Shown here piece after piece: positions 1-10,639 of a stretch of DNA of 10,639 nucleotides. Each line of letters opens with the position of its first letter. Within the stretch, counting starts at the first letter, position 1. Position numbers and translations under genes: made by a program. Origin of the DNA: a virus (lineage: Duplodnaviria > Heunggongvirae > Uroviricota > Caudoviricetes). The stretch covers positions 1-10,639 of the IMG/VR virus record IMGVR_UViG_2660238215_000016; one strand, given 5' to 3'. The notes beneath the pieces were generated by a model, which ran no database searches, was not told the origin of the DNA, and saw nothing but the letters and a program-made list of their open reading frames with translations.

Positions 1-291
1 CGGAAGGCCTTCACCATATGCCATGCTGTTTGACTGCCCCGCCAGAACCACAACAAAGTAATACTCCGGGTCTCTGGTGGCGCTGATTACTGTGCCTTCT
101 CCATCCGACGGCTTCACCAACACAGGTGTGGTGACATCACCTTCCGCCGCAATGGCCTGCATCAGAGTATAAGGCGTGATGGCCACCGGGCTGCCAAATG
201 GCTGCCACCCCTCCTTCAGTTTTTGTGTCAGCTTTTCCGCAAGATCTGACGGCGACGCCGCCCTGACCACATCGTAGTGTTTAAATACCAT
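1..291 (-). CDS. Partial CDS (N-terminal part; runs off left edge): NanS-p-like phage sialate O-acetylesterase (DUF1737-like N-terminus leading into SASA/SGNH domain)
   Basis: Minus-strand translation from ATG at 291 reads MVFKHYDVVRAASPSDLAEKLTQKLKEGWQPFGSPVAIT...VVVLAGQSNSMAYGEGLP; the GQSN block is the characteristic first motif of SASA/SGNH esterases. SD-like GGAAAAGG lies 3-5 nt upstream of ATG 291; an in-frame ATG at 306 (MVEKVMVF...) is an alternative start. Not in the ORF track because it is truncated by the window edge. Family assignment from memory of prophage NanS-p proteins. Confidence 0.5.
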   Translation of the reverse strand, partial: MVFKHYDVVRAASPSDLAEKLTQKLKEGWQPFGSPVAITPYTLMQAIAAEGDVTTPVLVKPSDGEGTVISATRDPEYYFVVVLAGQSNSMAYGEGLP

Positions 292-1382
292 GACCTTTTC
301 CACCATATAAAGGAACAATAAATTCTTTTCTGATAGAGATTTAAATAAAAATACATTATTTTACAAAAAAATAATATCCATTACAAAAACATCCGATTTT
401 TTTATATTCCCGCTCATCCTGCTAATTTGTATTACAAAAAAATGAAACAACTTGAACCAAAGTGATACAAAATTAGAAAAGAAAACCCCAGGAAGACAAA
501 GAAGACGATCTTTTTCAATGAGTTACACTGATTTATTGACTATGATTTTTAGCAAAACAATCGAAAGCAATGTGTACCGAGAAGGTTAAAAGATGGAATG
601 GATAGTTATTGACACAGTGATATGCCCATCAAGCGGAATAACGTTTTCAACTGTATGGTGTAAAATAAAGTTGATAATCTGGTATCAGTCAGATGTGTTC
701 CTGCCACCCGGAAGTATTCTCACACCTGTTAACTCAGGTGTGATTATGGATAATAAGCTGCTTCCATTAACCATTTACAACGTGACACCATTTAACAGAA
801 AATTCTGGTTCCTTATCAGAAATCAAAAAGAGTGCCCCGGGAATTCAGTTAAAACAAAAATAAAATGCCATAATAGTATGTGTGTACTGATGATATGCCC
901 GTATGGATTATATAAGTAACAACATATGAATACATAACAGATAAACTATTGACCTTGAGGCTCATCCATATAAAGAAGAGCTCTCCGAAGAGGTGTGTAT
1001 TTGCATGCACATTCCTTTTTTGCTCTATGTCATGACCTCCGGCGACTCTATCCCGGCACCAGCAAACCCGCATCATTCTCGTTTCCGGTGTCTCTAAAAC
1101 CACAGCACACCTGCCCCCCCGCTGAGGGAGGGAAGCACTGTATCCGTACACTCAGCAACAGAAATACCACCTGCTCACTGCGCTACATATCAGCAACAAT
1201 TTTATACCCGAACATTATCATTCAACAGCATGGTTCACAACAACATCATAACCCAGGAAACGAGAATCAGATCAAAAAAACAGAAATTTTACATGAAAAA
1301 TACTTTTTATTAATATTGATAGCGTCGTACCACAAAATACGATGAATTATCCCTGAACTTAACATTAATGCCAGTATGTATT

Positions 1383-1402
1383 GCCCGCTGGTATCAGCGG
1401 GC
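1383..1402. other. Perfect 8-bp GC-rich hairpin (GCCCGCTG-GTAT-CAGCGGGC) about 110 nt downstream of the methyltransferase gene
   Basis: Inverted repeat read directly from sequence. No clean U-tract on either strand, so it is an RNA-structure or processing candidate rather than a canonical intrinsic terminator. Confidence 0.4.
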
Positions 1403-1513
1403 GCTTTAAGAGATCGTATTCATGACTACCTGGGAAAAAGCTATTTTACTATTGTCAGTTTTTATTGCAGCCTTATCTGTCTACTTGCTTCACAGCCTGA
1501 ACTGACCATATCT

Positions 1514-2590
1514 TTATTCATCCTTCCCGTCATCAATTGAGCATGTAAGGATGTGACTAATCTCCTTAACGGTCTGCGCAAAACGTTCTGCCTCCAGTTC
1601 AACACCAGTTGCACGACGCCCGAGCGCCATAGCTGCTTTTATGGTTGAGCCAGAACCCATGAAAAAATCCGCCACCAGGTCACCCGGACGACTGCTCGCG
1701 CAGATTATCTGCCGCAGCATTTCTGCCGGTTTTTCGCACGGATGTTTCCCTGGATAGTACTGCACCGGTTTATGCGTCCACACATCGGTGTACGGCACCT
1801 GCACCGTCACACCGAAATACCGCCGCAAATTTTTATATTCACTCAGCAGTTCCATGTACTGTCGGTTCAGCTCACTGTATGTGCTGACCAGTTGGTAATG
1901 GGACTTTTCCAGTTCTCCCCGCTGATGTTTCTCTTCTGCCACCCGGGCAAACAGCGACTGTAATTTCAGATAATCGCTTTCGTTCGGTAGCTGCCACTGA
2001 CTGGCACTGAACCAGTGCGACACCATGTTTTTCTTTCCTGTGGCATCTGCAATCTGTTTTGCTGTTATCCCAAGAGCAGCACGCGCATCACGAAAGTAAG
2101 AAATCAGCGGGGCCATCACATGCTGTTTCAGTGCCCTGCCCTTCGCCTCATCGCCATCATCTTTCGGACGATACGGCCCCTGATAATGTTCCGCGAACAG
2201 AATGCGTTCTGTGGCCGGAAAATACGCCCGCAGGCTTTCCTTGTTGCACCCGTTCCAGCGTCCGGACGGCTTCGCCCAGATAATATGGTTCAGCACATTG
2301 AAGCGTTCACGCATCATGATTTCAATGTCAGATGCCAGGCGATGGTCACAGAACAGGTAAAGACTTCCGGCAGGTTTCAGCACCCGCCAGAACTGCGCCA
2401 GACACTGGTCCAGCCACTTCAGGTAATCATCGTCGCCCTTCCACTGGTTATCCCAGCCCTCGGGCTTCACTTTAAAGTATGGCGGGTCTGTGACTATCAG
2501 ATCGACAGAGTTTTCCGGTAAGGTCTGGATAAATTCCAGGCAATCAGCGTTGATTAACTCACAACTGGATATTTTTACAGTATTAAGCAT
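1514..2590 (-). CDS. Phage-encoded DNA methyltransferase (N6-adenine/N4-cytosine amino-methyltransferase, beta-class motif order)
   Basis: 358-aa ORF with ATG start. Motif IV DLIVTDPPY near the N-terminus and SAM-binding motif I FFMGSGST near the C-terminus (order IV then I). Position downstream of Q in the late transcript matches lambdoid prophage orphan methylases. Confidence 0.85.
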   Translation of the reverse strand: MLNTVKISSCELINADCLEFIQTLPENSVDLIVTDPPYFKVKPEGWDNQWKGDDDYLKWLDQCLAQFWRVLKPAGSLYLFCDHRLASDIEIMMRERFNVLNHIIWAKPSGRWNGCNKESLRAYFPATERILFAEHYQGPYRPKDDGDEAKGRALKQHVMAPLISYFRDARAALGITAKQIADATGKKNMVSHWFSASQWQLPNESDYLKLQSLFARVAEEKHQRGELEKSHYQLVSTYSELNRQYMELLSEYKNLRRYFGVTVQVPYTDVWTHKPVQYYPGKHPCEKPAEMLRQIICASSRPGDLVADFFMGSGSTIKAAMALGRRATGVELEAERFAQTVKEISHILTCSIDDGKDE

Positions 2591-2740
2591 GGATCATTAA
2601 GCCTGTCTCTGATAGGCTCATTCTGCTTTTGCGCAAAGCAGTGGGCCTGAGGTTTGCTTGTGAACCCAACGCATGAGCAGATGGCTGGTAGGTGCCCCTA
2701 ACACCCACCAGCCGCCCATTTACCACAAATAAAAAAGCCT

Positions 2741-2938
2741 TCACTGCGGAAGGCGTCTGTAACAACCGAACTGATAGTCTGCCAGACCCGCCATAACAAG
2801 CTGGGTCAGTATTAACTGGCAGCGTTCGCGTGAAAGGTAAGTATTCTGCGCAATCTCCCCGACTGTCGCCGGGTCGGTAACGCTTAATTCATTAAACACC
2901 ACTCTGGCGGTTTCTGTCATATCCTGCTGTTTTAGCAT
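2741..2938 (-). CDS. Small hypothetical phage protein (65 aa), possibly helix-turn-helix-like
   Basis: Intact ORF with ATG start and upstream AGGGAAAA SD-like sequence, same orientation as flanking phage genes, between the tR'-like terminator and the methyltransferase. No family recognised. Confidence 0.4.
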   Translation of the reverse strand: MLKQQDMTETARVVFNELSVTDPATVGEIAQNTYLSRERCQLILTQLVMAGLADYQFGCYRRLPQ

Positions 2939-3060
2939 GTCTTTTTTCCCTTTTGGTTAACGTGACATACCAATAACTCTTGTCCAAAAAGCCAGTAAGC
3001 AGAAAGACCGGTATTCGCAACCACCAGCGCATTTAACGCCCCGTGCCGTTTTTCAGTCAT

Positions 3061-3082
3061 AAAAAAACCCGCAAAAAGCGGG
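3061..3082 (-). terminator. Rho-independent terminator immediately downstream of the Q gene (tR'-like late-operon terminator)
   Basis: On the minus strand: stem CCCGC, loop TTTTT, stem GCGGG, followed by seven T (plus-strand A-run 3061-3067). It sits about 80 nt downstream of the Q stop codon, matching the lambda pR'-qut-tR' arrangement. Confidence 0.75.
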
Positions 3083-3161
3083 CTCTTTCAAATGTCCATG
3101 TCTGCTATTCGCCTCGCGGTACAGCTTTGCGAAGCTTACCGGAATTGAAGCAGTTTTTACG

Positions 3162-3728
3162 TCAAAAAGCAATAACTTTTTTCTCTATACCAAAAGCCAT
3201 AACCATTGGTTTGTACAAAATAAATTCTGCCACCTTTAGCCAATGCTCAATGCGTCTTTCACAGGTTCTTAAACTCCATTCCGGATGTGCATCATTCAGC
3301 AGTTCAGCCATTTTGCGCTTAGTCATCCCCCGCCCCACATAACGCTGACTCAGAACATTGAGCAGCCCGGGATAACCTGCCAGTACTTCACCAATAACCC
3401 TGTCGATTATTAACGCCTCTGAATCGGTACAATGTGCCAGCCAGCTTTTTTGATTGCCGTTGATCATATCCCGCAAAAAAGCCTCAAGTTCAGGTTTGTC
3501 CAGACCCGCTTTTTTCATCCTCCGGAGCGCCTCGTTAATTGCCGTTTTTGTCAGCTTTTTAGAGGTCAGTAATTGGTTGAACATATTTCCCGTCTTACCG
3601 TCGCCAATATACGACCAACGCCCCCACATACGCAGTTTCCCCTGGATCCAGACACTTTCCAGCGTTTTCAGGCGTAAATGCTCACCGCTTTTGCCTGTAA
3701 TTTCCGGGTATATCATATTTATGCTCAC
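3162..3728 (-). CDS. Q-like late-gene antitermination protein
   Basis: 188-aa ORF directly downstream of rusA (GTGA start/stop overlap at 3725-3728; in-frame ATG at 3716 is an alternative start) and directly upstream of a strong terminator. N-terminal region LRMWGRWS...FNQLLTSKKLTK resembles the WGAW...GLITSKVKSR region of 933W/82-type Q proteins (recalled, not searched). Synteny rusA-Q-terminator is typical. Confidence 0.6.
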   Translation of the reverse strand: MSINMIYPEITGKSGEHLRLKTLESVWIQGKLRMWGRWSYIGDGKTGNMFNQLLTSKKLTKTAINEALRRMKKAGLDKPELEAFLRDMINGNQKSWLAHCTDSEALIIDRVIGEVLAGYPGLLNVLSQRYVGRGMTKRKMAELLNDAHPEWSLRTCERRIEHWLKVAEFILYKPMVMAFGIEKKVIAF

Positions 3729-4084
3729 TCACTTTCAATTTTGTAAATCTTCACGCCCAGCCGCCCACCAGAAACGAGCTGACCGCGCACAATATTGATT
3801 TCATCAAACTGCTCGTCGTCTATGAGAAGTCCGGCATGCGTCAGCGCATCCAGCGGTGCTTTCAGGATATTGTCCAGATCACGACGGCGCTTATCCGGTG
3901 GCTCTGCAATAATCTTTATCGCCAGCCTTCCGGACAGGCTTAATTTCAGCCGCTGCTGGCGAACAATAAGCGCCACAGCCCGGCGATAACGCTTTCCCTC
4001 CTCCGAGATAAAATATGTGCTGCCACGGCGTCGCCAGTAAGTGTTCACCGTCGGCGGGTAAGGTAAAACCAAATCTATGAGCAT
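3725..4084 (-). CDS. rusA: RusA Holliday-junction resolvase (crossover junction endodeoxyribonuclease)
   Basis: 119-aa ORF. LPYPPTVNTYWRRRG...PDKRRRDLDNILKAPLDALTHAGLLIDDEQ matches the RusA family catalytic core (DRRRRDLDN / D-x-L motif region); length about 120 aa as in E. coli RusA. Good SD (AGAGGTGA) 5 nt upstream of ATG. Confidence 0.9.
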   Translation of the reverse strand: MLIDLVLPYPPTVNTYWRRRGSTYFISEEGKRYRRAVALIVRQQRLKLSLSGRLAIKIIAEPPDKRRRDLDNILKAPLDALTHAGLLIDDEQFDEINIVRGQLVSGGRLGVKIYKIESE

Positions 4085-4096
4085 CAGTCACCTCTT

Positions 4097-5146
4097 TTAC
4101 CCAAGCACGCCAGTTGCAAAGGCGTGATCAAGAAAACGAAAAATTAAATCAACCTGAGAGCCATGCTTTTCTTCGAACGCCAGCGGATCCGCATGAAGCT
4201 CGTTGTGATGCTCCCGACACAGCGGTAGCGTGAAAATATCGTGAGATTTTGTCCCCATTCCGCCCTGACCATGACCAATCAGGTGATGGGGATCGTCGGC
4301 TGGCTTACCACAACACGCACACGGCTGAGTCTTCACCCAGCGTGTGTATTTCTCGTTAACCCAGCGGCGACGTTTAGGTCGTTTCATGAAAGATTCCGGA
4401 GACTCAGGATCAACGGCAATGCTGACCACCGTCTTTTCCTGTGGTGGGTTCTGTTGCTGGTGGACGTCAGGCAGTAACGCAATATTTTTTGTGCGCTGCT
4501 TCAGTATGCTGGTGGCGGTCTGCTCTCCCGGCACGATGTCGCTTTCACGGTACATTGAGCGGATTTTTTCCGCACGCACCCCCAGCGAACGACGTAATAC
4601 CGCTTCCGGTAGCGCGTCCGCCACCTGATTGCGGACCGCCCACCAGGATAATTCAGCCAAAGATAATTCACGCTCCTGCGTACCGCTTATTGCGTGACCG
4701 ATGACGTCAATCATCCATGCTGACAGGTTTTGATGAGCAAGTTGCTCGAGTGATTCGGATGTCTGGTCACGCAGCTGGTTGTCGCAGTGCCAGCACAACA
4801 CCATTGCGCCGGTACCATAACGGTGAATGACAGTTTCGCTGTGATGATAATCGCCGTGTGGCCACTGGCAGGATTTCACGTGACGCAACAGCCAGTCAGA
4901 CAATGCACCAGCACCACCAGCAGCACGAATCACCCGTGCGTTACTGAAAAACGGCAGCAATGTTTTGTCTTCCACCAGCGGCTGGCGAACGGCAGGAACG
5001 ACCCCGGACGGCAGATTACGCATGCTTTTCGGTTCCGGCTCCATCAATACCCGGGTATTGTGGAATACTGGCATGGATTCACGGCCCGGCTTAACGATCA
5101 CCAGCCCGAGTTCCGGTACCAGAACAGGTCGAAGTAATACCCGCAC
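4097..5146 (-). CDS. DUF968 family prophage protein (YdfU-like) with C-terminal Cys/His-rich HNH-like region
   Basis: 349-aa ORF, the same length as K-12 Qin YdfU from memory. C-terminus CACCGKPADDPHHLIGHGQGGMGTKSHDIFTLPLCREHHNELH is a Cys/His cluster typical of DUF968. Lies in the conserved position upstream of rusA. Confidence 0.75.
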   Translation of the reverse strand: MRVLLRPVLVPELGLVIVKPGRESMPVFHNTRVLMEPEPKSMRNLPSGVVPAVRQPLVEDKTLLPFFSNARVIRAAGGAGALSDWLLRHVKSCQWPHGDYHHSETVIHRYGTGAMVLCWHCDNQLRDQTSESLEQLAHQNLSAWMIDVIGHAISGTQERELSLAELSWWAVRNQVADALPEAVLRRSLGVRAEKIRSMYRESDIVPGEQTATSILKQRTKNIALLPDVHQQQNPPQEKTVVSIAVDPESPESFMKRPKRRRWVNEKYTRWVKTQPCACCGKPADDPHHLIGHGQGGMGTKSHDIFTLPLCREHHNELHADPLAFEEKHGSQVDLIFRFLDHAFATGVLG

Positions 5147-5147
5147 G

Positions 5148-5426
5148 TTACCTCCAGATGCGTTGCTGGAATGTGCGAGACGGACGCGGTGGGCGTTCAG
5201 AGTAAGGAAGCCTGACGGAGATTATCCAGTGACGGTAGTCGAGACTAAGGGCTTTCTTAACCTCGTATCCGCGCCTGCGGTAACACTGAATTATCCATTC
5301 AGCCTGCTCTTCAGTACATGGAGGGTGTTGGAACCATTCAGACTTGAATGCGTGAGAATACCGCTCGTGCGTGCAGGCAAGAACGGGCGAATTATCAGAA
5401 TTGTAATATTTTACGTTGCGTGCCAT
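5148..5426 (-). CDS. Hypothetical phage protein (92 aa), tightly coupled to the downstream DUF968 gene
   Basis: ATG start with GGAGAA SD about 7 nt upstream; its stop codon is 1 nt from the start codon of the 4097..5146 gene. No family recognised. Confidence 0.55.
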   Translation of the reverse strand: MARNVKYYNSDNSPVLACTHERYSHAFKSEWFQHPPCTEEQAEWIIQCYRRRGYEVKKALSLDYRHWIISVRLPYSERPPRPSRTFQQRIWR

Positions 5427-5492
5427 CGGTTTTCTCCGGTGGCACGGTGTTACTCAGCGGGAGTTCAGCCCCGCGCAAGATTGTAGATGAGT

Positions 5493-5744
5493 TTATTCTT
5501 CTGCAAAAGCTGAAAAGCCTGCTTTTATTCCGATCTCTTTCAGTGCCTGTAATGAAGTGACAAACTCACCTTCGCGCAAGATAAATCCGTCTGTCACTCG
5601 ACCATCCACAAAATTAATTAACGCAGCCCCATTCTTTCGCAAACACATAATGCGGTAATGACTAACAAGATTTCCATTTTCAACGCACACAGCATAGAGG
5701 CCATCTTCACAAAAAATTTTACGCAGTTCTTCGATGTTCATCAT
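5493..5744 (-). CDS. Small prophage protein, Rem-like (83 aa)
   Basis: ATG start with GGAAGGA SD. Length and position (between hokD and the ydfU-like gene) match the Qin prophage rem gene; assigned by synteny and length from memory, not by sequence comparison. Confidence 0.55.
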   Translation of the reverse strand: MMNIEELRKIFCEDGLYAVCVENGNLVSHYRIMCLRKNGAALINFVDGRVTDGFILREGEFVTSLQALKEIGIKAGFSAFAEE

Positions 5745-5860
5745 CAGAATCCTTCCGGATAATTAGCTCTCCCCTTTAAGGGACCATCCCTCTTATCCCT
5801 GCGCGCTACTTAAGTATTTTTGATTCTATTCCGGCGCCGTCCAGAACTTCAAACGCGTTG

Positions 5861-5891
5861 AAAATAAAAACAAAAACCCGCCGAAGCGGGT
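5861..5891 (-). terminator. Rho-independent terminator at the 3' end of the hok mRNA (fbi/terminator region)
   Basis: Minus strand: hairpin ACCCGC-TTCG-GCGGGT followed by TTTTGTTTTTATTTT, about 70 nt downstream of the hok stop codon. Confidence 0.65.
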
Positions 5892-5960
5892 TAAGTGCGG
5901 GTGCGTTGAGGATGCCTGCCACATCAGAGGTGGCGAGGGATTTCTCCCTCGCCGGGTCTC

Positions 5961-6116
5961 TTACTCCTCAGGTTCGTAAGCTGTGAAGACAGCGACCTCC
6001 GTCTGGCCGGTTCGGATTCGTACCTCGCAGAGGTCTTTCCTCGTTACCAGTGCCGTCACTATGACGGTTAAACAGATGACGATCAGGGCGATTAACATCG
6101 CCTTTTGCTGCTTCAT
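5961..6116 (-). CDS. hokD: Hok-family type I toxin (HokD/RelF-type small membrane toxin)
   Basis: 51-aa translation MKQQKAMLIALIVICLTVIVTALVTRKDLCEVRIRTGQTEVAVFTAYEPEE matches HokD as I recall it; AAGGAG SD about 9 nt upstream of ATG at 6116. Confidence 0.9.
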   Translation of the reverse strand: MKQQKAMLIALIVICLTVIVTALVTRKDLCEVRIRTGQTEVAVFTAYEPEE

Positions 6117-6173
6117 AGCCTGCTTCTCCTTGCCTTTCGGCACGTAAGAGGCTAACCTACATGTGTCTAGCAT
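5961..6173 (-). CDS. mok-like overlapping reading frame (modulator of killing) through which hok translation is coupled
   Basis: 70-aa ORF starting at ATG 6173 and co-terminal with hok (MLDTCRLASYVPKGKEKQA-MKQQK...), the same architecture as mok/hok in plasmid R1 hok/sok. Confidence 0.5.
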   Translation of the reverse strand: MLDTCRLASYVPKGKEKQAMKQQKAMLIALIVICLTVIVTALVTRKDLCEVRIRTGQTEVAVFTAYEPEE

Positions 6174-6200
6174 GAAATTGGCCTCAGATTAATGTTAAGC
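6135..6200 (+). ncRNA. Predicted Sok-like antisense RNA region (coordinates approximate)
   Basis: Placed by analogy with R1 hok/sok, where Sok is antisense to the hok leader around the mok SD and start. Here the mok ATG is at 6171-6173 and the tac-like 5' element of the hok mRNA (GCTTGAGGCTATCTGTCTCA on the minus strand) lies near 6265-6285. Promoter and ends not confidently read. Confidence 0.3.
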
Positions 6201-6291
6201 GTCTTGCAGGACGCGTAATGTTAACTGGGGCTTTTCTCTATCTGCCTTTGGTGTTCATGCCTGAGACAGATAGCCTCAAGCACCCGCAGCC

Positions 6292-6320
6292 ATTCTACTT
6301 AACTCCCGTTACCCCGCCAA
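6292..6320 (-). promoter_or_regulatory. Putative sigma70 promoter of the hok/mok mRNA
   Basis: Minus strand: -35 TTGGCG (6315-6320), 17-nt spacer, -10 TAGAAT (6292-6297), immediately upstream of the tac-like GCTTGAGGCT leader element. Confidence 0.4.
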
Positions 6321-6429
6321 TATGAAATCAGTCAGAAAGGCGATCCATAAGAATAATGAATTCTGTAAGGCAATAGTCTCACTGTCTAACATATCTTACC
6401 TGATTACTTTACAATATAATAATTCATAG

Positions 6430-7065
6430 TTAAATCAAATGAATGTCATCATCCAATAATTCATTAGTAGTAATACTACCTTTTTTGAAAAAATTTTCAT
6501 TTGCCTCAGCAATTTTTGCATCATTAACAAATTCATCACACATCCCAAAATAATGAAAAAATCTATTTAGTTTACATATTCCAATGGTATAGTGCCCTTT
6601 AGGTGTTTTGTCCACATAAACACGATTTGCTTTTATAATATGCATCTCATAATCATCTATATGTGGATGAACGATGCGAAATGATGCAGATGCAGTTGGA
6701 TAGTTTTTGCGCCGCCCCCCATTTATTACGGGTTCAAATAACACTTCATTTTTACCTTTGAATTCATTGCAGTCAGGACATACTACACATAGATTCTTAG
6801 GTTCAAAAATAAAACATAGATATTGAGATTTTGGCACAATATGCTCTATAGGAGCAGCTTGTGCAGCTCTTACCCCAATAGGCTCATGACAATATACACA
6901 TTCTAGCTTTTGTTCTTCTCTGTAATGATTTCTAATTTCTGCACGGAGAACTTGCAAATCATCATCTCCCCAGTTGGTATGCTTAAAATCTGGAGAAGAC
7001 AATTTTTTCTCAATAATATCTAATGACTCTGCGCTGAATCTAATTGGATTTTTAATTTTTGGCAT
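6430..7065 (-). CDS. HNH endonuclease, PtuB-like (downstream gene of a Septu-like ATPase+HNH pair)
   Basis: His-Me finger read from translation: CVYCHE ... EHIVPKS ... CVVCPDCNEFKGKN (CxxC...H...N...CxxC). ATG at 7065 with AGGTG upstream; the ORF track start (7074) is an in-frame GTG. Overlaps the upstream ATPase gene by 14 nt (23 nt with the GTG start). Strongly AT-rich by eye. Confidence 0.8.
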   Translation of the reverse strand: MPKIKNPIRFSAESLDIIEKKLSSPDFKHTNWGDDDLQVLRAEIRNHYREEQKLECVYCHEPIGVRAAQAAPIEHIVPKSQYLCFIFEPKNLCVVCPDCNEFKGKNEVLFEPVINGGRRKNYPTASASFRIVHPHIDDYEMHIIKANRVYVDKTPKGHYTIGICKLNRFFHYFGMCDEFVNDAKIAEANENFFKKGSITTNELLDDDIHLI

Positions 7066-8425
7066 AAATTTCACACACCTGAGATACGGAATTTACGAGT
7101 TCATTAATAGGGTCATTACTATTAACGTTTTCAAGGAGAAGCTGGAGTTGTTTTAATTCACGCCAATTATCATCTGTTACTAACTTAGCAGTCTTAACTT
7201 TTGAAAGTAAATTGAAAGCTAATCTGGCAATGTATTCATTCATAATGCCAGGGGCATCAAATAGTTCCGCAAGTTGATAGTCTGCAGACCGGTTGCTAAA
7301 GTATTTTGCTTTATAAAGATAACTTTTCGACAAAGATGTTATATAACAACCTTTATTCGGCAAATTGGATATTATTTGTGGTGAATGAGTTGCAATTATG
7401 AATTGACAACCTGAGTAAGTTAAAAATGCTTTTGTTAACATAATGATAAACTCTTCCTGCCATCGAGGATGCAAGCTTATTTCCGGTTCATCAATTAGTA
7501 TTATAGAACCATCAGTTATATGCCCTGCAATTCCAAGCAACATCACTAATAAACATTGTTCTCCCGAGCTCGCACGTTTAAGTGACATGGGACCATAGCT
7601 TTTTTTTATGAGTCGCATATCCATCAATCTCATGAAGCCAGCGTTCATAAGTTTAAGAATTGATCTAGAAAAATAATTATTCGCATAAGTCGAGCCAACC
7701 AATGTTTCACCATTGGTAAAATCGACTGACAAGGTTACAGCCCTACGTTCAGGTTCAAATCGATTAATTTCAACCAGTGCTTCGTAAATATCATGACGTG
7801 ATTCGGAGTTTAACTTTAAGAGACTCTCAATATTCTTCCTGTCAATTTTTATATTGTATTTTAAATATAACTCCTTAACTTCCGTTAATATCTCATCTGA
7901 ATATACACCAATGAAGTTATAGTCAGGAGTGTCCGGTCCGTTGTAAGTTGGTTTAAATACAAACTCTATATGGGGCTCAAAATCAATAGAATGAAAAACA
8001 TCGAGTAAATTTGCAGGATTTTCTGAATAAGCAAGTTTCTCTAGCCAACCTCTCGCTGCTGAAGATAAAAGGGATACGGCATTTGATACGCCGAAGGGGC
8101 CTTCTCCACGCATACCCACATAGCGATAATTATTTTCTTTCCTTTGGTGATTTAATGACCTACGCCCTGGAGGGAATTTATCGAATGGGCTGGTAGATAC
8201 GGCAATTAACTTTGGTGTTATTTCTCTGTCAAATAATGGATTAAAAGTTTTCAAGAAATGAACATCTTGAATACAGTCTTTAGCAATCTGAGATAACAAT
8301 CTGCTTTTTCCAACGCCATTTTTACCTACAATTACTGTAAAAATATTCGCATTATCAGAAACATCACCTTCTATAGCAAGTTTTAAGGTTCGACTATCAT
8401 GATGGGTATAATATAGTCTTTTCAT
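7052..8425 (-). CDS. ABC-type (AAA_15/AAA_21-like) ATPase, PtuA-like (upstream gene of a Septu-like pair)
   Basis: 457-aa ORF with Walker A GKNGVGKS near the N-terminus, ABC-signature-like SSGEQ, Walker B IILIDEPE and H-loop IIATHSP near the C-terminus. This spacing is typical of OLD/PtuA/AriA-type ABC ATPases. AT-rich; overlaps the downstream HNH gene. Confidence 0.85.
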   Translation of the reverse strand: MKRLYYTHHDSRTLKLAIEGDVSDNANIFTVIVGKNGVGKSRLLSQIAKDCIQDVHFLKTFNPLFDREITPKLIAVSTSPFDKFPPGRRSLNHQRKENNYRYVGMRGEGPFGVSNAVSLLSSAARGWLEKLAYSENPANLLDVFHSIDFEPHIEFVFKPTYNGPDTPDYNFIGVYSDEILTEVKELYLKYNIKIDRKNIESLLKLNSESRHDIYEALVEINRFEPERRAVTLSVDFTNGETLVGSTYANNYFSRSILKLMNAGFMRLMDMRLIKKSYGPMSLKRASSGEQCLLVMLLGIAGHITDGSIILIDEPEISLHPRWQEEFIIMLTKAFLTYSGCQFIIATHSPQIISNLPNKGCYITSLSKSYLYKAKYFSNRSADYQLAELFDAPGIMNEYIARLAFNLLSKVKTAKLVTDDNWRELKQLQLLLENVNSNDPINELVNSVSQVCEIYAKN

Positions 8426-8481
8426 TTTATTTTTCTCTCATTAAAATGCTCTTAATTAAGAATACCTATGCCTTTAACAGG

Positions 8482-8510
8482 CTCATAGTTATGATTTGTG
8501 ATGCTTTCAA
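8482..8510 (-). promoter_or_regulatory. Putative sigma70 promoter for the ATPase-HNH operon
   Basis: Minus strand: -35 TTGAAA (8505-8510), 17-nt spacer, -10 TATGAG (8482-8487), about 55 nt upstream of the ATPase ATG, in an AT-rich leader. Confidence 0.3.
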
Positions 8511-8809
8511 AAGGGTATGTAACTAAGTATTGAACTCTACACCTAAGATTCTAAGATTTTTAAATTAAAGTAGTTAAACATGCTTTTGATTGTACTCATT
8601 CTATGTCCATCGTTGCTGCATGTCTAGATATCGTGCCCCGCTATTGTTATGTAATGATATGATGGACGCCCTGTCTGAAGCAGCCAGTGAAATATTTTTA
8701 CTGTCTGCGTTTTCTACAGGAGTAAATCACATGAGCACAATCAGAGTTGTTGGTATTGATATTGACCTGTGCCCAATTTTTTGAGACATATATTGGTACG
8801 CTCTTGGCA

Positions 8810-8831
8810 CAGGGCTGCTGCTGCAGCCCTG
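8810..8831. other. Strong 9-bp hairpin (CAGGGCTGC-TGCT-GCAGCCCTG) immediately downstream of the recombinase fragment
   Basis: Perfect inverted repeat read from sequence; no adjacent U-tract. May be a terminator-like structure or a recombination/attachment-site remnant. Confidence 0.4.
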
Positions 8832-8837
8832 ACAGCT

Positions 8838-9083
8838 TTAGACTTCGATCGATTCAGAGATCTCTAATGCATCATCAACTTCTATACCCAGATAACGAAC
8901 TGTGCTTTCCGTTTTCTTATGGCCCAACGGAAGTTGGATCACCCGGAGATTCTTAGTTTTCTTGCAGACAAGGCAAGGTTTTGTTCTTCTCATGGAATGT
9001 GTGCTGTAAAGCGAATCTTCGAGACCAAGCTTTTCTCCCCCCTATGAAAGATTCGGTTATATTGCAGGATTGATATGTGTTGG
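8838..9083 (-). pseudogene. C-terminal fragment of a tyrosine recombinase/integrase (truncated remnant)
   Basis: Minus-strand frame translates to ...FHRGGEKLGLEDSLYSTHSMRRTKPCLVCKKTKNLRVIQLPLGHKKTESTVRYLGIEVDDALEISESIEV*, carrying the C-terminal catalytic signature H-x-x-R ... LGH ... T-x-R-Y. Only about 80 codons are open (stop at 9084-9086), and a full-length integrase cannot fit before the 280-aa gene, so it is a truncated relic. Different frames in the neighbouring 8953..9135 and 9206..9406 ORFs are consistent with decay. Confidence 0.45.
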
Positions 9084-9463
9084 TTAGTACCGACCCGAGA
9101 TCGGAACAAGTAGTCTTTACTGCGTAAATTGCCAAGCTTTATCAATGCAGAAACAGCTTCTCTTGTCCCTTTGGTTATCTCAAATTGGATAGGACTGCCA
9201 GTTTTTCAGTTGCAGCACCGTAGCTCTGCTTGAAACCGAGCTAAATCACGCGTTTTACCTTCCAGTTCAAGCCGGATTTGGAGCCCCCAGATATGAGATA
9301 TCTGAAGTGGTCTTTTTGGGCCTATGATACTGTCTTTGTTCCTCGGTGACGTATTCATACTCAAATCTCCTGCAATGTGGAAGATTTGAGTATGGTTGTC
9401 TCTCAAGAGCGAAATAGGTCAACTATAACTAGTTGTTGTGCATGTACGAATTCTGCCAATTAA

Positions 9464-10306
9464 TTATTGACAATAAAAAATTCTGGAATGTTCGAAATCA
9501 TCATATCGAATTATAATCTGGTTGACTGCATCTATTGTTGGCGCCATTTCAGTTATAATATCTCGATAACCTAAAGAGTTAAATACATTTACTAAGGCCT
9601 CACACCGCAGGCCAATAGCAATTACGACATTATAAATTGCCAGCCGTTTATTTTCTTGTTTAACTGCAAGAGTGAGTTCGATAGCAGTAGTTTTATCGCT
9701 TTGGATTGCATTATATAGAGATACTATATTTGCCATATCATCAGAGAATGTATGTATTGAATCACAAAGAGGGACGTAATAGGCATGATAGTGTGTTTCC
9801 CAGCCAATTACTTCGAAAAGCTTTTTGGTTCCAGGATATTCAGGTGTATTTGGCCACAATCTATTAAACATATCAGTTAGCTCTTTTCCGATACGAATCC
9901 TTTCATCTGCTGCTGGATTAGTCATTTCTTTGGATTTTAAACACTCCAGCCACCGTTTCCCATTACTATGAACTAATTTCTTACTACCCTTGAGTAATGC
10001 TTGTGCATTTTTTCCATCATCAATTGCTATATAAAATTGATTGGCAGCCTGTTCCATTATAACTCTAGTTAATACTTCCGATGCTGAAAAGGCTCCGGTA
10101 CTCAAAGAAAATATAGCCTGATTACTAAGTTCATTCAGTACATTAAAGTAATGTAAAACCATCAATTTTTGTTCCACCCCCTTTAGGTTATCTATTTTAT
10201 CTTTATGCCTCTCAAATTTCGCATGGATATATTTATTTATCGCGGCTATTTTTTTTACATCTTCGTCGAAATCAAACGGGCAACGTCCAAACGATTTTTT
10301 CCTCAT
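9464..10306 (-). CDS. Hypothetical protein (280 aa), unrecognised family; accessory/defence-island cargo
   Basis: Long intact ORF with ATG start, near-consensus SD (AGGAGG, 6-nt spacing) and a perfect -10 TATAAT at 10345-10350 upstream. AT-rich like the ATPase/HNH genes. No motifs I can assign with confidence. Confidence 0.75.
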   Translation of the reverse strand: MRKKSFGRCPFDFDEDVKKIAAINKYIHAKFERHKDKIDNLKGVEQKLMVLHYFNVLNELSNQAIFSLSTGAFSASEVLTRVIMEQAANQFYIAIDDGKNAQALLKGSKKLVHSNGKRWLECLKSKEMTNPAADERIRIGKELTDMFNRLWPNTPEYPGTKKLFEVIGWETHYHAYYVPLCDSIHTFSDDMANIVSLYNAIQSDKTTAIELTLAVKQENKRLAIYNVVIAIGLRCEALVNVFNSLGYRDIITEMAPTIDAVNQIIIRYDDFEHSRIFYCQ

Positions 10307-10344
10307 ATATTCCTCCTGTTTTACAATCTCCCATAAGTTGGAAA

Positions 10345-10350
10345 ATTATA
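10345..10350 (-). promoter_or_regulatory. Putative -10 element (TATAAT) of the promoter for the 280-aa gene
   Basis: Perfect TATAAT on the minus strand about 40 nt upstream of the ATG; the candidate -35 (TTATTT, 17-nt spacer) is weak. Confidence 0.35.
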
Positions 10351-10568
10351 CACTGGAGATTACCTATAAATAACTGCGCACGATAGCTAGTCAGTGCAAG
10401 AAGTACAACCAAGTGAACGGTGCGTATCAGATACCTAGCTTAAAGTTCGCGATAGCCGTACTCTGTGTATTAGCTCAGACATTACCTGACAGGTTGAGTA
10501 GATAGAATCGAATCAAAGCTGACAGTCTGGTTTGGACTGTGGGGTCAACCGATGGATGCAACACACAG

Positions 10569-10639
10569 TGAACCGCCCCGGAAATCCTGGAGACTAAACT
10601 CCCTGAGAAAGAGGTAAACAGGATGACTAAAAATACTCG
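10569..10639 (+). mobile_element. Left end (terminal inverted repeat and leader) of an IS3-family insertion sequence, IS629/IS1203-like; continues beyond the window
   Basis: TGAACCGCCCCGGAAATCCTGGAGACTAAACTCCCTGAGAAAGAGGTAAACAGG followed by ATGACTAAAAATACTCG matches, from memory, the IS629/IS1203 left terminus and orfA start (MTKNTRF...). IS3-family ends begin with TG. Confidence 0.7.
10623..10639 (+). CDS. Partial CDS: IS3-family transposase OrfA, N-terminus only (MTKNT...)
   Basis: ATG at 10623 preceded by GAGG SD inside the IS left end; truncated by the window edge. Confidence 0.6.

Follow-up and report, generated by a model that had tools for sequence, protein, structure and literature searches.

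A probable late-control cassette behind a DUF1133-type Q-like gene in a lambdoid prophage

Does the short interval that follows a Q-like gene in a lambdoid prophage contain the switch for its late genes? This question is raised by positions 3182 to 3061 (minus strand) of a 10,639-nucleotide stretch of viral DNA (Caudoviricetes; IMG/VR record IMGVR_UViG_2660238215_000016, positions 1 to 10,639), the whole of which is called the window here. An earlier note on this DNA had placed a late promoter and a tR' region in this interval, and that placement was correct, as a conserved promoter-like cassette and a terminator were found there (Table 1). The reading we prefer, with a probability of about 0.72, is that 3182-3061 is the late-control cassette of a lambdoid prophage, consisting of a promoter, a pause element and a terminator, and that it is served by a Q protein of the DUF1133 branch. 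What was observed are the elements themselves, how they are conserved and spaced, the homology of Q and the order of the genes; from these we infer a transcription start, a pause, a Q-binding site and antitermination.

Table 1. Positions of the predicted late-control elements and adjoining features in the window
Feature	Position	Strand	Details
Q-like antiterminator gene	3162-3716	minus	184 aa from ATG 3716; TGA stop 3164-3162
A-tract AAAAAA	3177-3182	minus	about -45 to -40; 88-98% conserved; resembles an UP element
Proposed -35, TTGCTT	3167-3172	minus	TTG 3172-3170 in 65/65; fixed 17 bp from the -10
17-bp spacer	3150-3166	minus	contains TTGACG 3165-3160; candidate Q-binding element (QBE)
Proposed TG-extended -10, TGcTTCAAT	3144-3152	minus	TG at -15/-14; TTCAAT 3149-3144 at -12 to -7
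Predicted start, A3137	3137	minus	7 nt after the -10; from spacing; T3138 and A3137 invariant
TAAGCT, candidate sigma-dependent pause element (SDPE)	3133-3138	minus	5 nt after the -10; equals the SDPE hexamer of phage 21 PR'
Initial transcribed block, GCTTCGCAAAGCTGTAyCGCGAGGCGAA	3108-3135	minus	invariant except 3127 (95%) and C/T at 3119
tR'-like intrinsic terminator	3061-3084	minus	stem CCCGC 3082-3078 / GCGGG 3072-3068, extendable to 3084/3066
First gene after the terminator, phrog_331	2741-3060	minus	42-aa open reading frame (ORF) 3060-2932 and 65-aa ORF 2938-2741
Second terminator-like hairpin, GCCTTCCGCAGTGAAGGC then TTTTTTATTT	2737-2754	minus	from the terminator scan; between the 65-aa ORF and the methylase gene

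Every gene in this part of the window is encoded on the minus strand. The mechanical ORF of the Q-like gene begins with a GTG at 3728 and spans 3728-3162; the start at ATG 3716 and the resulting length of the protein were taken from the annotation of identical RefSeq loci. This type of Q is common in prophages of E. coli, Shigella, Citrobacter and Salmonella and is annotated in RefSeq as being of "unknown function". The protein matched Pfam DUF1133 with an E-value of 4e-105 and PHROG 753 ("anti-termination protein Q-like"), and it scored above the cut-off against Phage_antitermQ, PF06530 (33.1 bits, cut-off 26). When all PDB sequences were searched, the sole significant relative was the Q protein of phage 21 (entries 6P18 and 6JNX), with an E-value of 5e-4 for the single sequence and of 5.7e-5 for the profile against 6P18. 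At the level of sequence this likeness to phage 21 Q and PF06530 is weak but specific, and it indicates that the window Q is remotely related to the antiterminator Q of phage 21, belonging to the DUF1133 branch of that family. The DUF1133 family is small, with 76 matches among 1.84 billion representatives, few of them full length.

The position of the gene points the same way. An identical locus in E. coli O103 carries, in order, racR, hokD, DUF968, RusA, DUF1133, a 65-aa gene and a DNA methyltransferase, and after the methyltransferase iraM (opposite strand), a SASA/NanS-p-like esterase, DUF1378, DUF826, holin, lysozyme, Rz and terminase, the last four supplying lysis and morphogenesis genes downstream of the interval in this identical RefSeq locus. 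By these assignments the gene order is that of the lambdoid layout, and the DUF1133 gene appears to occupy the Q position after RusA. The claim that the gene upstream of the interval is a homologue of Q-type antiterminators is supported by the DUF1133 and PF06530 matches, the PHROG family, the phage 21 Q match and the gene order.

Related loci were fetched in three ways, through the Q protein, through the core of the conserved interval and through three distant DUF1133 representatives (62%, 48% and 40% identical), and about 300 of them show the conserved cassette. Conservation within the window type was calculated over 65 non-redundant cassettes. Information content is low upstream of 3183 (below 1 bit per base) and rises sharply at the elements of the cassette. 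In the extended -10 the bases T, T, A, A and T are 100% conserved and the TG (3152-3151) 94-100%, and at the place of the -35 the more distant DUF1133 groups have TTGAAT, TTGCAA, TTGACT or TTGACA. The A-tract persists within the coding sequence of Q, at the 3' end of antirepressor coding sequence and outside coding sequence; as it is kept whether the DNA is coding or not, selection seems to act on the DNA itself. Within the spacer, conservation reaches 97-100% at T3164, A3158 and AAAC (3156-3153), more than a plain spacer would usually show, and this conserved, subgroup-specific segment would be the likeliest Q-binding site.

Transcription is predicted to start at about A3137, where an invariant pyrimidine at -1 precedes an invariant purine at +1. 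A TAnnnT motif lies exactly 5 nt after the -10 in every subgroup. Among the window-type cassettes it takes the form TAnGCT, and its window version, TAAGCT, may be a sigma-dependent pause element, a proposal made at the sequence level. Two other assignments were considered and rejected. TAAGCT as the true -10 has no -35 or TG at the right distance (the TTG lies 28 bp upstream), and TGGTATAGA (3192-3184), inside Q, as an extended -10 was found only in the window's own Q allele.

The same architecture recurs in DUF1133 subgroups that are 38-64% identical in Q. Subgroup A (Q identity about 62%) has TTGAAT, 17 bp, TGcTT(G/A)AAT, 5 nt and TA(G/A)GCT; subgroup B (52-58%) has TTGACT, 15 bp, TGgTTAAAT, 5 nt and TAAGCT; subgroup C (43-47%) has TTGCAA, 17 bp, TGgTTGAAT, 5 nt and TATGCT; and subgroup D (38-44%) has TTGAAT, 17 bp, TGaTTAAAT, 5 nt and TATGCT. 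In groups A, C and D the -10 contains the stop codon of Q. Two further subgroups have a canonical -10: the P0126-like subgroup (Q identity 47-48%) reads TTGACT, 16 bp, TA(C/G)GAT, 5 nt, TATAAGCT, and the L251 subgroup (50%) reads TTGACA, 16 bp, TAAGAT, 5 nt, TATAAGAT. Every TTnAAT subgroup keeps the TGn, whereas the canonical -10s (TACGAT, TAGGAT and TAAGAT) are without a TG. The TG extension would be the compensation expected for a T at -11, and in some subgroups the site appears, by its sequence, to be a promoter in canonical form. The variable parts differ in sequence, among them the spacers (TTTTACGCATAAAC, TTGCGCGGAAA and GTGAGCCAGTSAC in different subgroups), and an architecture that persists in distant subgroups despite such differences indicates selection for function.

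The cassette is also linked to the Q gene. In 179 Q matches it lies no more than 150 nt from where Q ends, and in 20 more it stands 880-1920 nt downstream, beyond an isrK-C4-antirepressor insertion. In L007 and L073, two Gifsy-type loci that were scanned with Rfam, isrK (67-76 bits) and the C4 antisense RNA lie between Q and the cassette, and in the loci read in detail (such as L122 and L168) an antirepressor gene ends directly before it. L003 and L004 are the only loci that have enough flanking sequence and yet are without a cassette. Of the loci fetched by the cassette pattern, few are without a Q match and these are mostly truncated, L122 being probably a remnant. DUF1133 Q and the cassette thus go together even when they are apart, which is the behaviour expected of a Q utilisation site.

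The inserted loci permit a comparison with AntQ and IsrK of Salmonella Gifsy-1, AntQ having been shown to interfere with termination (PMC4825925). The DUF1133 proteins of L003, L007 and L073 are about 78-81% identical to the window Q. The protein of L007, a Salmonella locus, is 78% identical and is encoded directly upstream of isrK, and its identification as AntQ rests on this synteny. In both systems a short terminated RNA of about 77 nt, predicted in the case of the window, directly follows Q. Unlike in the window, what follows Q in these relatives is isrK (RF01394), the C4 antisense RNA and an antirepressor gene, and the cassette comes after this insertion in L007, L073 and 18 more loci. 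In L003, L007 and L073 the isrK and the C4 antisense RNA that come after the DUF1133 Q were located at about 3075-3285, with isrK overlapping the Rfam "c4-a1b1" target model. The inserted isrK-C4-antirepressor unit resembles a P1 immI-like module set between Q and the late cassette. A further arrangement was seen in L168, where two copies of the cassette (732-757 and 4541-4566) stand 3.8 kb apart, each followed by the same HicB-like gene; these may reflect tandem prophages or a duplication.

The downstream end of the cassette is an intrinsic terminator. The hairpin followed by seven T's that had been reported about 80 nt after the Q stop starts 80 nt after it, and a hairpin and T-run stand at the same place in 87 of the 88 unique window-type contexts. 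The loop is TTTTT (3077-3073), the seven T's occupy 3067-3061, and an ATG at 3060 follows directly. A CCCGC-N5-GCGGG-TTTTT pattern would be expected 0.02 times by chance in the window, while TTGACG, the hexamer that the earlier note had put forward as the -35, would be expected 4.95 times and occurs twice; on these numbers the terminator is a real signal and TTGACG alone is not. By RNAfold the 5-bp core has -8.8 kcal/mol, and the A/U extension brings this to -13.4. The general terminator scan of the window did not list the hairpin at 3082-3061, which a dedicated scan and RNAfold both find; in our reading the scan omitted it because, once the stem is extended, the upstream A-run is paired to the T-run and no tail is left. 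At least four stems were found at this place (CCCGC/GCGGG, ACCCGCC/GCGGGT, CCACC/GGTGG and ACCGC/GCGGT). An A-rich GAAAGAG lies upstream of the terminator (window 3061-3090), such that the plus strand reads the hairpin and then CTCTTTC, and the terminator might be weakly active in both directions.

From A3137 the terminated RNA of the window is predicted to be about 75-77 nt long, and across all subgroups 134 of the 140 unique predicted RNAs measure 63-79 nt. The expectation of a transcript shorter than the lambda 6S RNA was therefore sound, and the length of about 100 nt that had been proposed for it is replaced by the 75-77 nt of the comparative model. The terminated RNA of lambda is 194 nt long.

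Under the proposed switch, a sigma-70 promoter overlapping the last Q codons (the A-tract, TTGCTT, 17 bp and the TG-extended TTCAAT) would start transcription at about A3137. Sigma region 2 would then bind again, to the -10-like TAAGCT (3138-3133), and the polymerase would pause near the promoter. Where Q is lacking, the polymerase would terminate at the hairpin and T7 (3082-3061) and release the RNA of about 75-77 nt. After induction, Q would bind DNA in or beside the spacer and load onto the paused complex, and the modified polymerase would read through the terminators at 3082-3061 and 2754-2737 and continue into the phrog_331 gene, the methylase, the NanS-p-like esterase, the lysis genes and the terminase.

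The closest known counterpart is the late region of phage 21 (OL657228), in which the Q stop is followed by a -35 (TTGACA), a QBE (ATTGAGCA, AATGAGCA) that fills the 17-bp spacer, a -10 (AACACT) and the start, and further on by the SDPE TAAGCTG (+2 to +8), a terminator whose end is near +50, tRNAs and the holin. By analogy with this layout, 3149-3144 would be the -10 of the window, A3137 its start and TAAGCT its pause element. With the promoter proposed for the window, the two regions share a promoter that starts within a few bases of the Q stop, a spacer of 17 bp, an identical hexamer at the pause position (TAAGCT) and a short leader that ends in an intrinsic terminator ahead of the late and lysis genes. 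They differ in that phage 21 has TTGACA and an AACACT with A at -11, whereas the window has TTGCTT and a TG-extended TTCAAT; phage 21 has 7 nt between the -10 and the pause hexamer, as against 5 nt in the window; and the terminated RNA is about 50 nt in the former and about 75-77 nt in the latter. The lambda PR'-qut-tR' region follows the logic proposed for the window: a constitutive promoter comes after Q, a -10-like pause element is placed near +1, and Q allows the terminator to be read through. The distance from the start of the -10 to the start of the pause element is 12 bp in lambda and 11 bp in the window. Unlike the window, lambda has a Q from an unrelated sequence family and a -10 that is canonical in its key bases.

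Several observations weigh against the proposed switch. The -10 carries a T at -11 and not the near-universal A, and a consensus promoter scan of the window called no promoter here; the T at -11 is the reason that such a scan misses this -10. No direct repeat like the 8-bp repeat of the phage 21 QBE is visible in the window spacer. Many loci were fetched with a pattern derived from the cassette, and the invariance of 3135-3110 among these is partly ascertainment; the initial transcribed block is equally conserved in loci fetched via Q alone. The strict conservation, which extends to about +30, exceeds the needs of a pause element. The remaining points concern the protein. The homology to phage 21 Q (Q21) is supported by weak sequence scores, and in a hidden Markov model alignment DUF1133 is without about 12 residues opposite the Q21 residues RPRKMLCRGGGRIQK, which form the loop of its helix-turn[loop]-helix. 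Because this loop is absent, DNA recognition by DUF1133 proteins may differ from that of Q21. An AlphaFold2 model of the Q-like protein, built from a 21-sequence alignment, was poor (predicted local distance difference test score, pLDDT, 60; predicted template modelling score, pTM, 0.46), and a Foldseek search of this model against the PDB returned noise, with nothing below an E-value of 2.5.

The most probable of the rivals is that the cassette is mainly a small-RNA gene. In this account a constitutive RNA of about 75 nt with an Hfq-type layout would be the product of interest, its 5' 28 nt would serve as seed or stabilising hairpin, and the link to Q would be secondary, as with StxS from PR'. 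As such a gene would have it, an invariant 5' block is followed by a variable linker and by a terminator with a U-tail, and the 77-nt RNA was folded into a 7-bp 5' hairpin (GCUUCGC with GCGAGGC, 3135-3129 pairing with 3117-3111), a 21-nt single-stranded linker and the terminator, with -27.2 kcal/mol and a z-score of -2.77. The presence of the cassette in 729 of 5,426 complete E. coli genomes (about 13%) would also suit a small-RNA gene. Terminated PR' transcripts can be regulators, as is StxS, alongside which the lambda 6S RNA and IsrK are cited as RNAs that likewise arise from antiterminated promoters (PMC7547250). StxS is the PR'-tR' RNA of Stx1 and Stx2a phages and is made constitutively in lysogens; unlike the window, these phages carry a 144-aa Q, and their primary RNA of 258 nt is processed to 74 nt (PMC7547250).

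Against a dedicated small-RNA gene, no Rfam family reached threshold at the locus, the isrK model giving 19.8 bits for window 3135-3062 against a cut-off of 50, as compared with 67-76 bits for the true isrK of L003, L007 and L073. For isrJ no match was reported in the Rfam searches at the locus or at the equivalent Salmonella site. RNAalifold returned no consensus structure across subgroups (17 diverse 5' segments), and in single-sequence folds the 5' hairpin appeared in the window type and group A and not in groups C, L229 and L232, being weak in several. We consider it unlikely that the cassette is mainly a small-RNA gene. That the RNA of about 75 nt acts as a trans-acting small RNA of the StxS type, with its 5' 28 nt, which do not vary among many prophages that are mosaic elsewhere, as seed or stabilising hairpin and with the T at -11 and the TG perhaps marking a factor-dependent promoter, is a tentative suggestion of low probability. 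Such a role would be compatible with the switch, and it is possible that both are true.

A second rival dispenses with the promoter altogether: the hairpin would end the early-right operon after Q, and the downstream genes would be reached by read-through or have promoters of their own. In its favour are the negative consensus scan, the -10 without A at -11 and the place of the terminator at a mosaic module boundary. It leaves unexplained, however, why the A-tract, TTG, TGnTTnAAT and TAnnnT hold a fixed spacing from one subgroup to another and also where the DNA is non-coding, why the P0126 and L251 subgroups have canonical promoters at the corresponding site, and why the cassette turns up again downstream of the inserted antirepressor module. 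We therefore hold the interval to be quite improbable as a mere operon end.

The version put forward in the earlier note, in which TTGACG (3165-3160) is the PR' -35, with an unrecognised -10, a start near 3130 and an RNA of about 100 nt, is very improbable. The hexamer matches five of six consensus positions and does overlap the Q stop TGA at 3164-3162, as the note had said; Gifsy-type relatives have a genuine TTGACT-18-TATATT promoter that overlaps the Q stop likewise, and a TTTGAC box stands at the equivalent place in the P0126 and L251 subgroups. This box, however, lies inside the spacer of a canonical TTGACW-16-TAnGAT promoter, just as TTGACG lies within the spacer of the better conserved TTGnnn-17 bp-TGnTTnAAT, and spacing, frequency and conservation all tell against the hexamer. 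The note was right that no convincing -10 follows at 16-18 bp, where the candidates are CCGGTA, TCCGGT and CGGTAA, with TAAGCT 21 bp away; what it had overlooked is the -10-like TAAGCT as a match to the phage 21 pause hexamer. TTGACG does not exceed its chance frequency, and it is degenerate in relatives that keep every other element, with TTTACG, CTTACG, TTTAGC, CTGATC and others at its position; G3163 is a T in 73% of window-type sequences, and 3161-3159 are variable.

The last rival, that the conserved block is a recombination linker between phage modules kept by recent exchange and not by function, is hardly credible, since although junctions fall at the terminator and many different downstream modules follow the same cassette, the upstream contexts differ too and yet the promoter-like elements keep their exact spacing, and the distant subgroups argue for selection on function. 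The window is homologous to phiP27 and many Stx2 phages from about 3072 onwards, a point within the hairpin, so that the terminator also marks a mosaic boundary. At this junction phiP27 (L001, 2985-3010) has a 5' arm of its own, ACCCGCC, and terminators seemingly act as the borders of modules.

Downstream of the cassette, the proposed late transcript would have to pass two terminators (3082-3061 and 2754-2737). The ATG at 3060 of the phrog_331 gene adjoins the T-run of the first and is without an obvious ribosome-binding site. Both window ORFs (42 and 65 aa) match phrog_331. In 39 related loci this gene is whole, with an ORF of 106 aa, and in 10 others it is split as in the window; in the window the split is apparently due to a frameshift near an A-run at about 2945. 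That Q is strictly required for expression of the methylase and the NanS-p-like gene, a further claim, was not supported: the gene order fits it, and internal promoters were checked by a consensus scan only. Between the methylase and the NanS-p-like esterase, the gene for the anti-adaptor iraM (593-919, plus strand) lies on the opposite strand in the late region and looks like a moron-type insertion. On the other side of Q, a hok/sok type I toxin-antitoxin locus was found at 6285-6111 and 6173-5961 (minus strand), with an Rfam sok match of 118 bits and a 70-aa mok/hok-type ORF. A sub-threshold isrK-like match at 5952-5871 seemingly consists mostly of the terminator of this hok/sok locus (AACCCGCTTCGGCGGGTT plus a T-run).

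In the complete E. coli genomes the cassette was searched as a 125-nt sequence, which occurs at 100% identity in O157:H7 strains, and carries no annotated RNA feature. The copy in strain Sakai belongs to prophage Sp11 and is flanked by ECs_2193 ("phage antiterminator") and ECs_2192; there the predicted start corresponds to NC_002695.2:2,191,178 (minus strand). In E. coli K-12 neither DLP12 nor Qin carries the cassette, and start-site maps of K-12 are therefore unusable for the cassette. A literature search returned no match for the cassette sequence or for ECs2192/ECs2193. Sakai Sp12 (L334, 41083-40990, minus strand) has another Q (ECs_2267, 229 aa), followed by a short unit whose end, about 80 nt after the Q stop, is ACCCGCCCACAAGCGGGT plus a T-run; compact late switches thus appear to recur with other Q types in the same genome. 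HnrS is a 66-nt multicopy prophage small RNA of Sakai Sp9, Sp10 and Sp12 (PMC13502914). No link between HnrS and the cassette was found, the cassette being in Sp11 and Sp12 carrying the different Q.

In total, the mechanism would be a textbook Q switch, most like that of phage 21, in a Q subfamily so far not dissected, and each of its functional steps is one that we infer. Its value lies in annotation rather than in surprise, as the biology is ordinary. What is gained is a concrete map of the late switch for a DUF1133-type Q, with a promoter, a pause element, a start and a terminator, all of them predicted. In related phages tRNAs are among the genes behind the switch, and the downstream module of the window precedes the stx genes of phiP27 and several Stx2 phages. 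As tRNA- and stx-linked modules follow it, the proposed switch would bear on how virulence cargo is turned on after induction.

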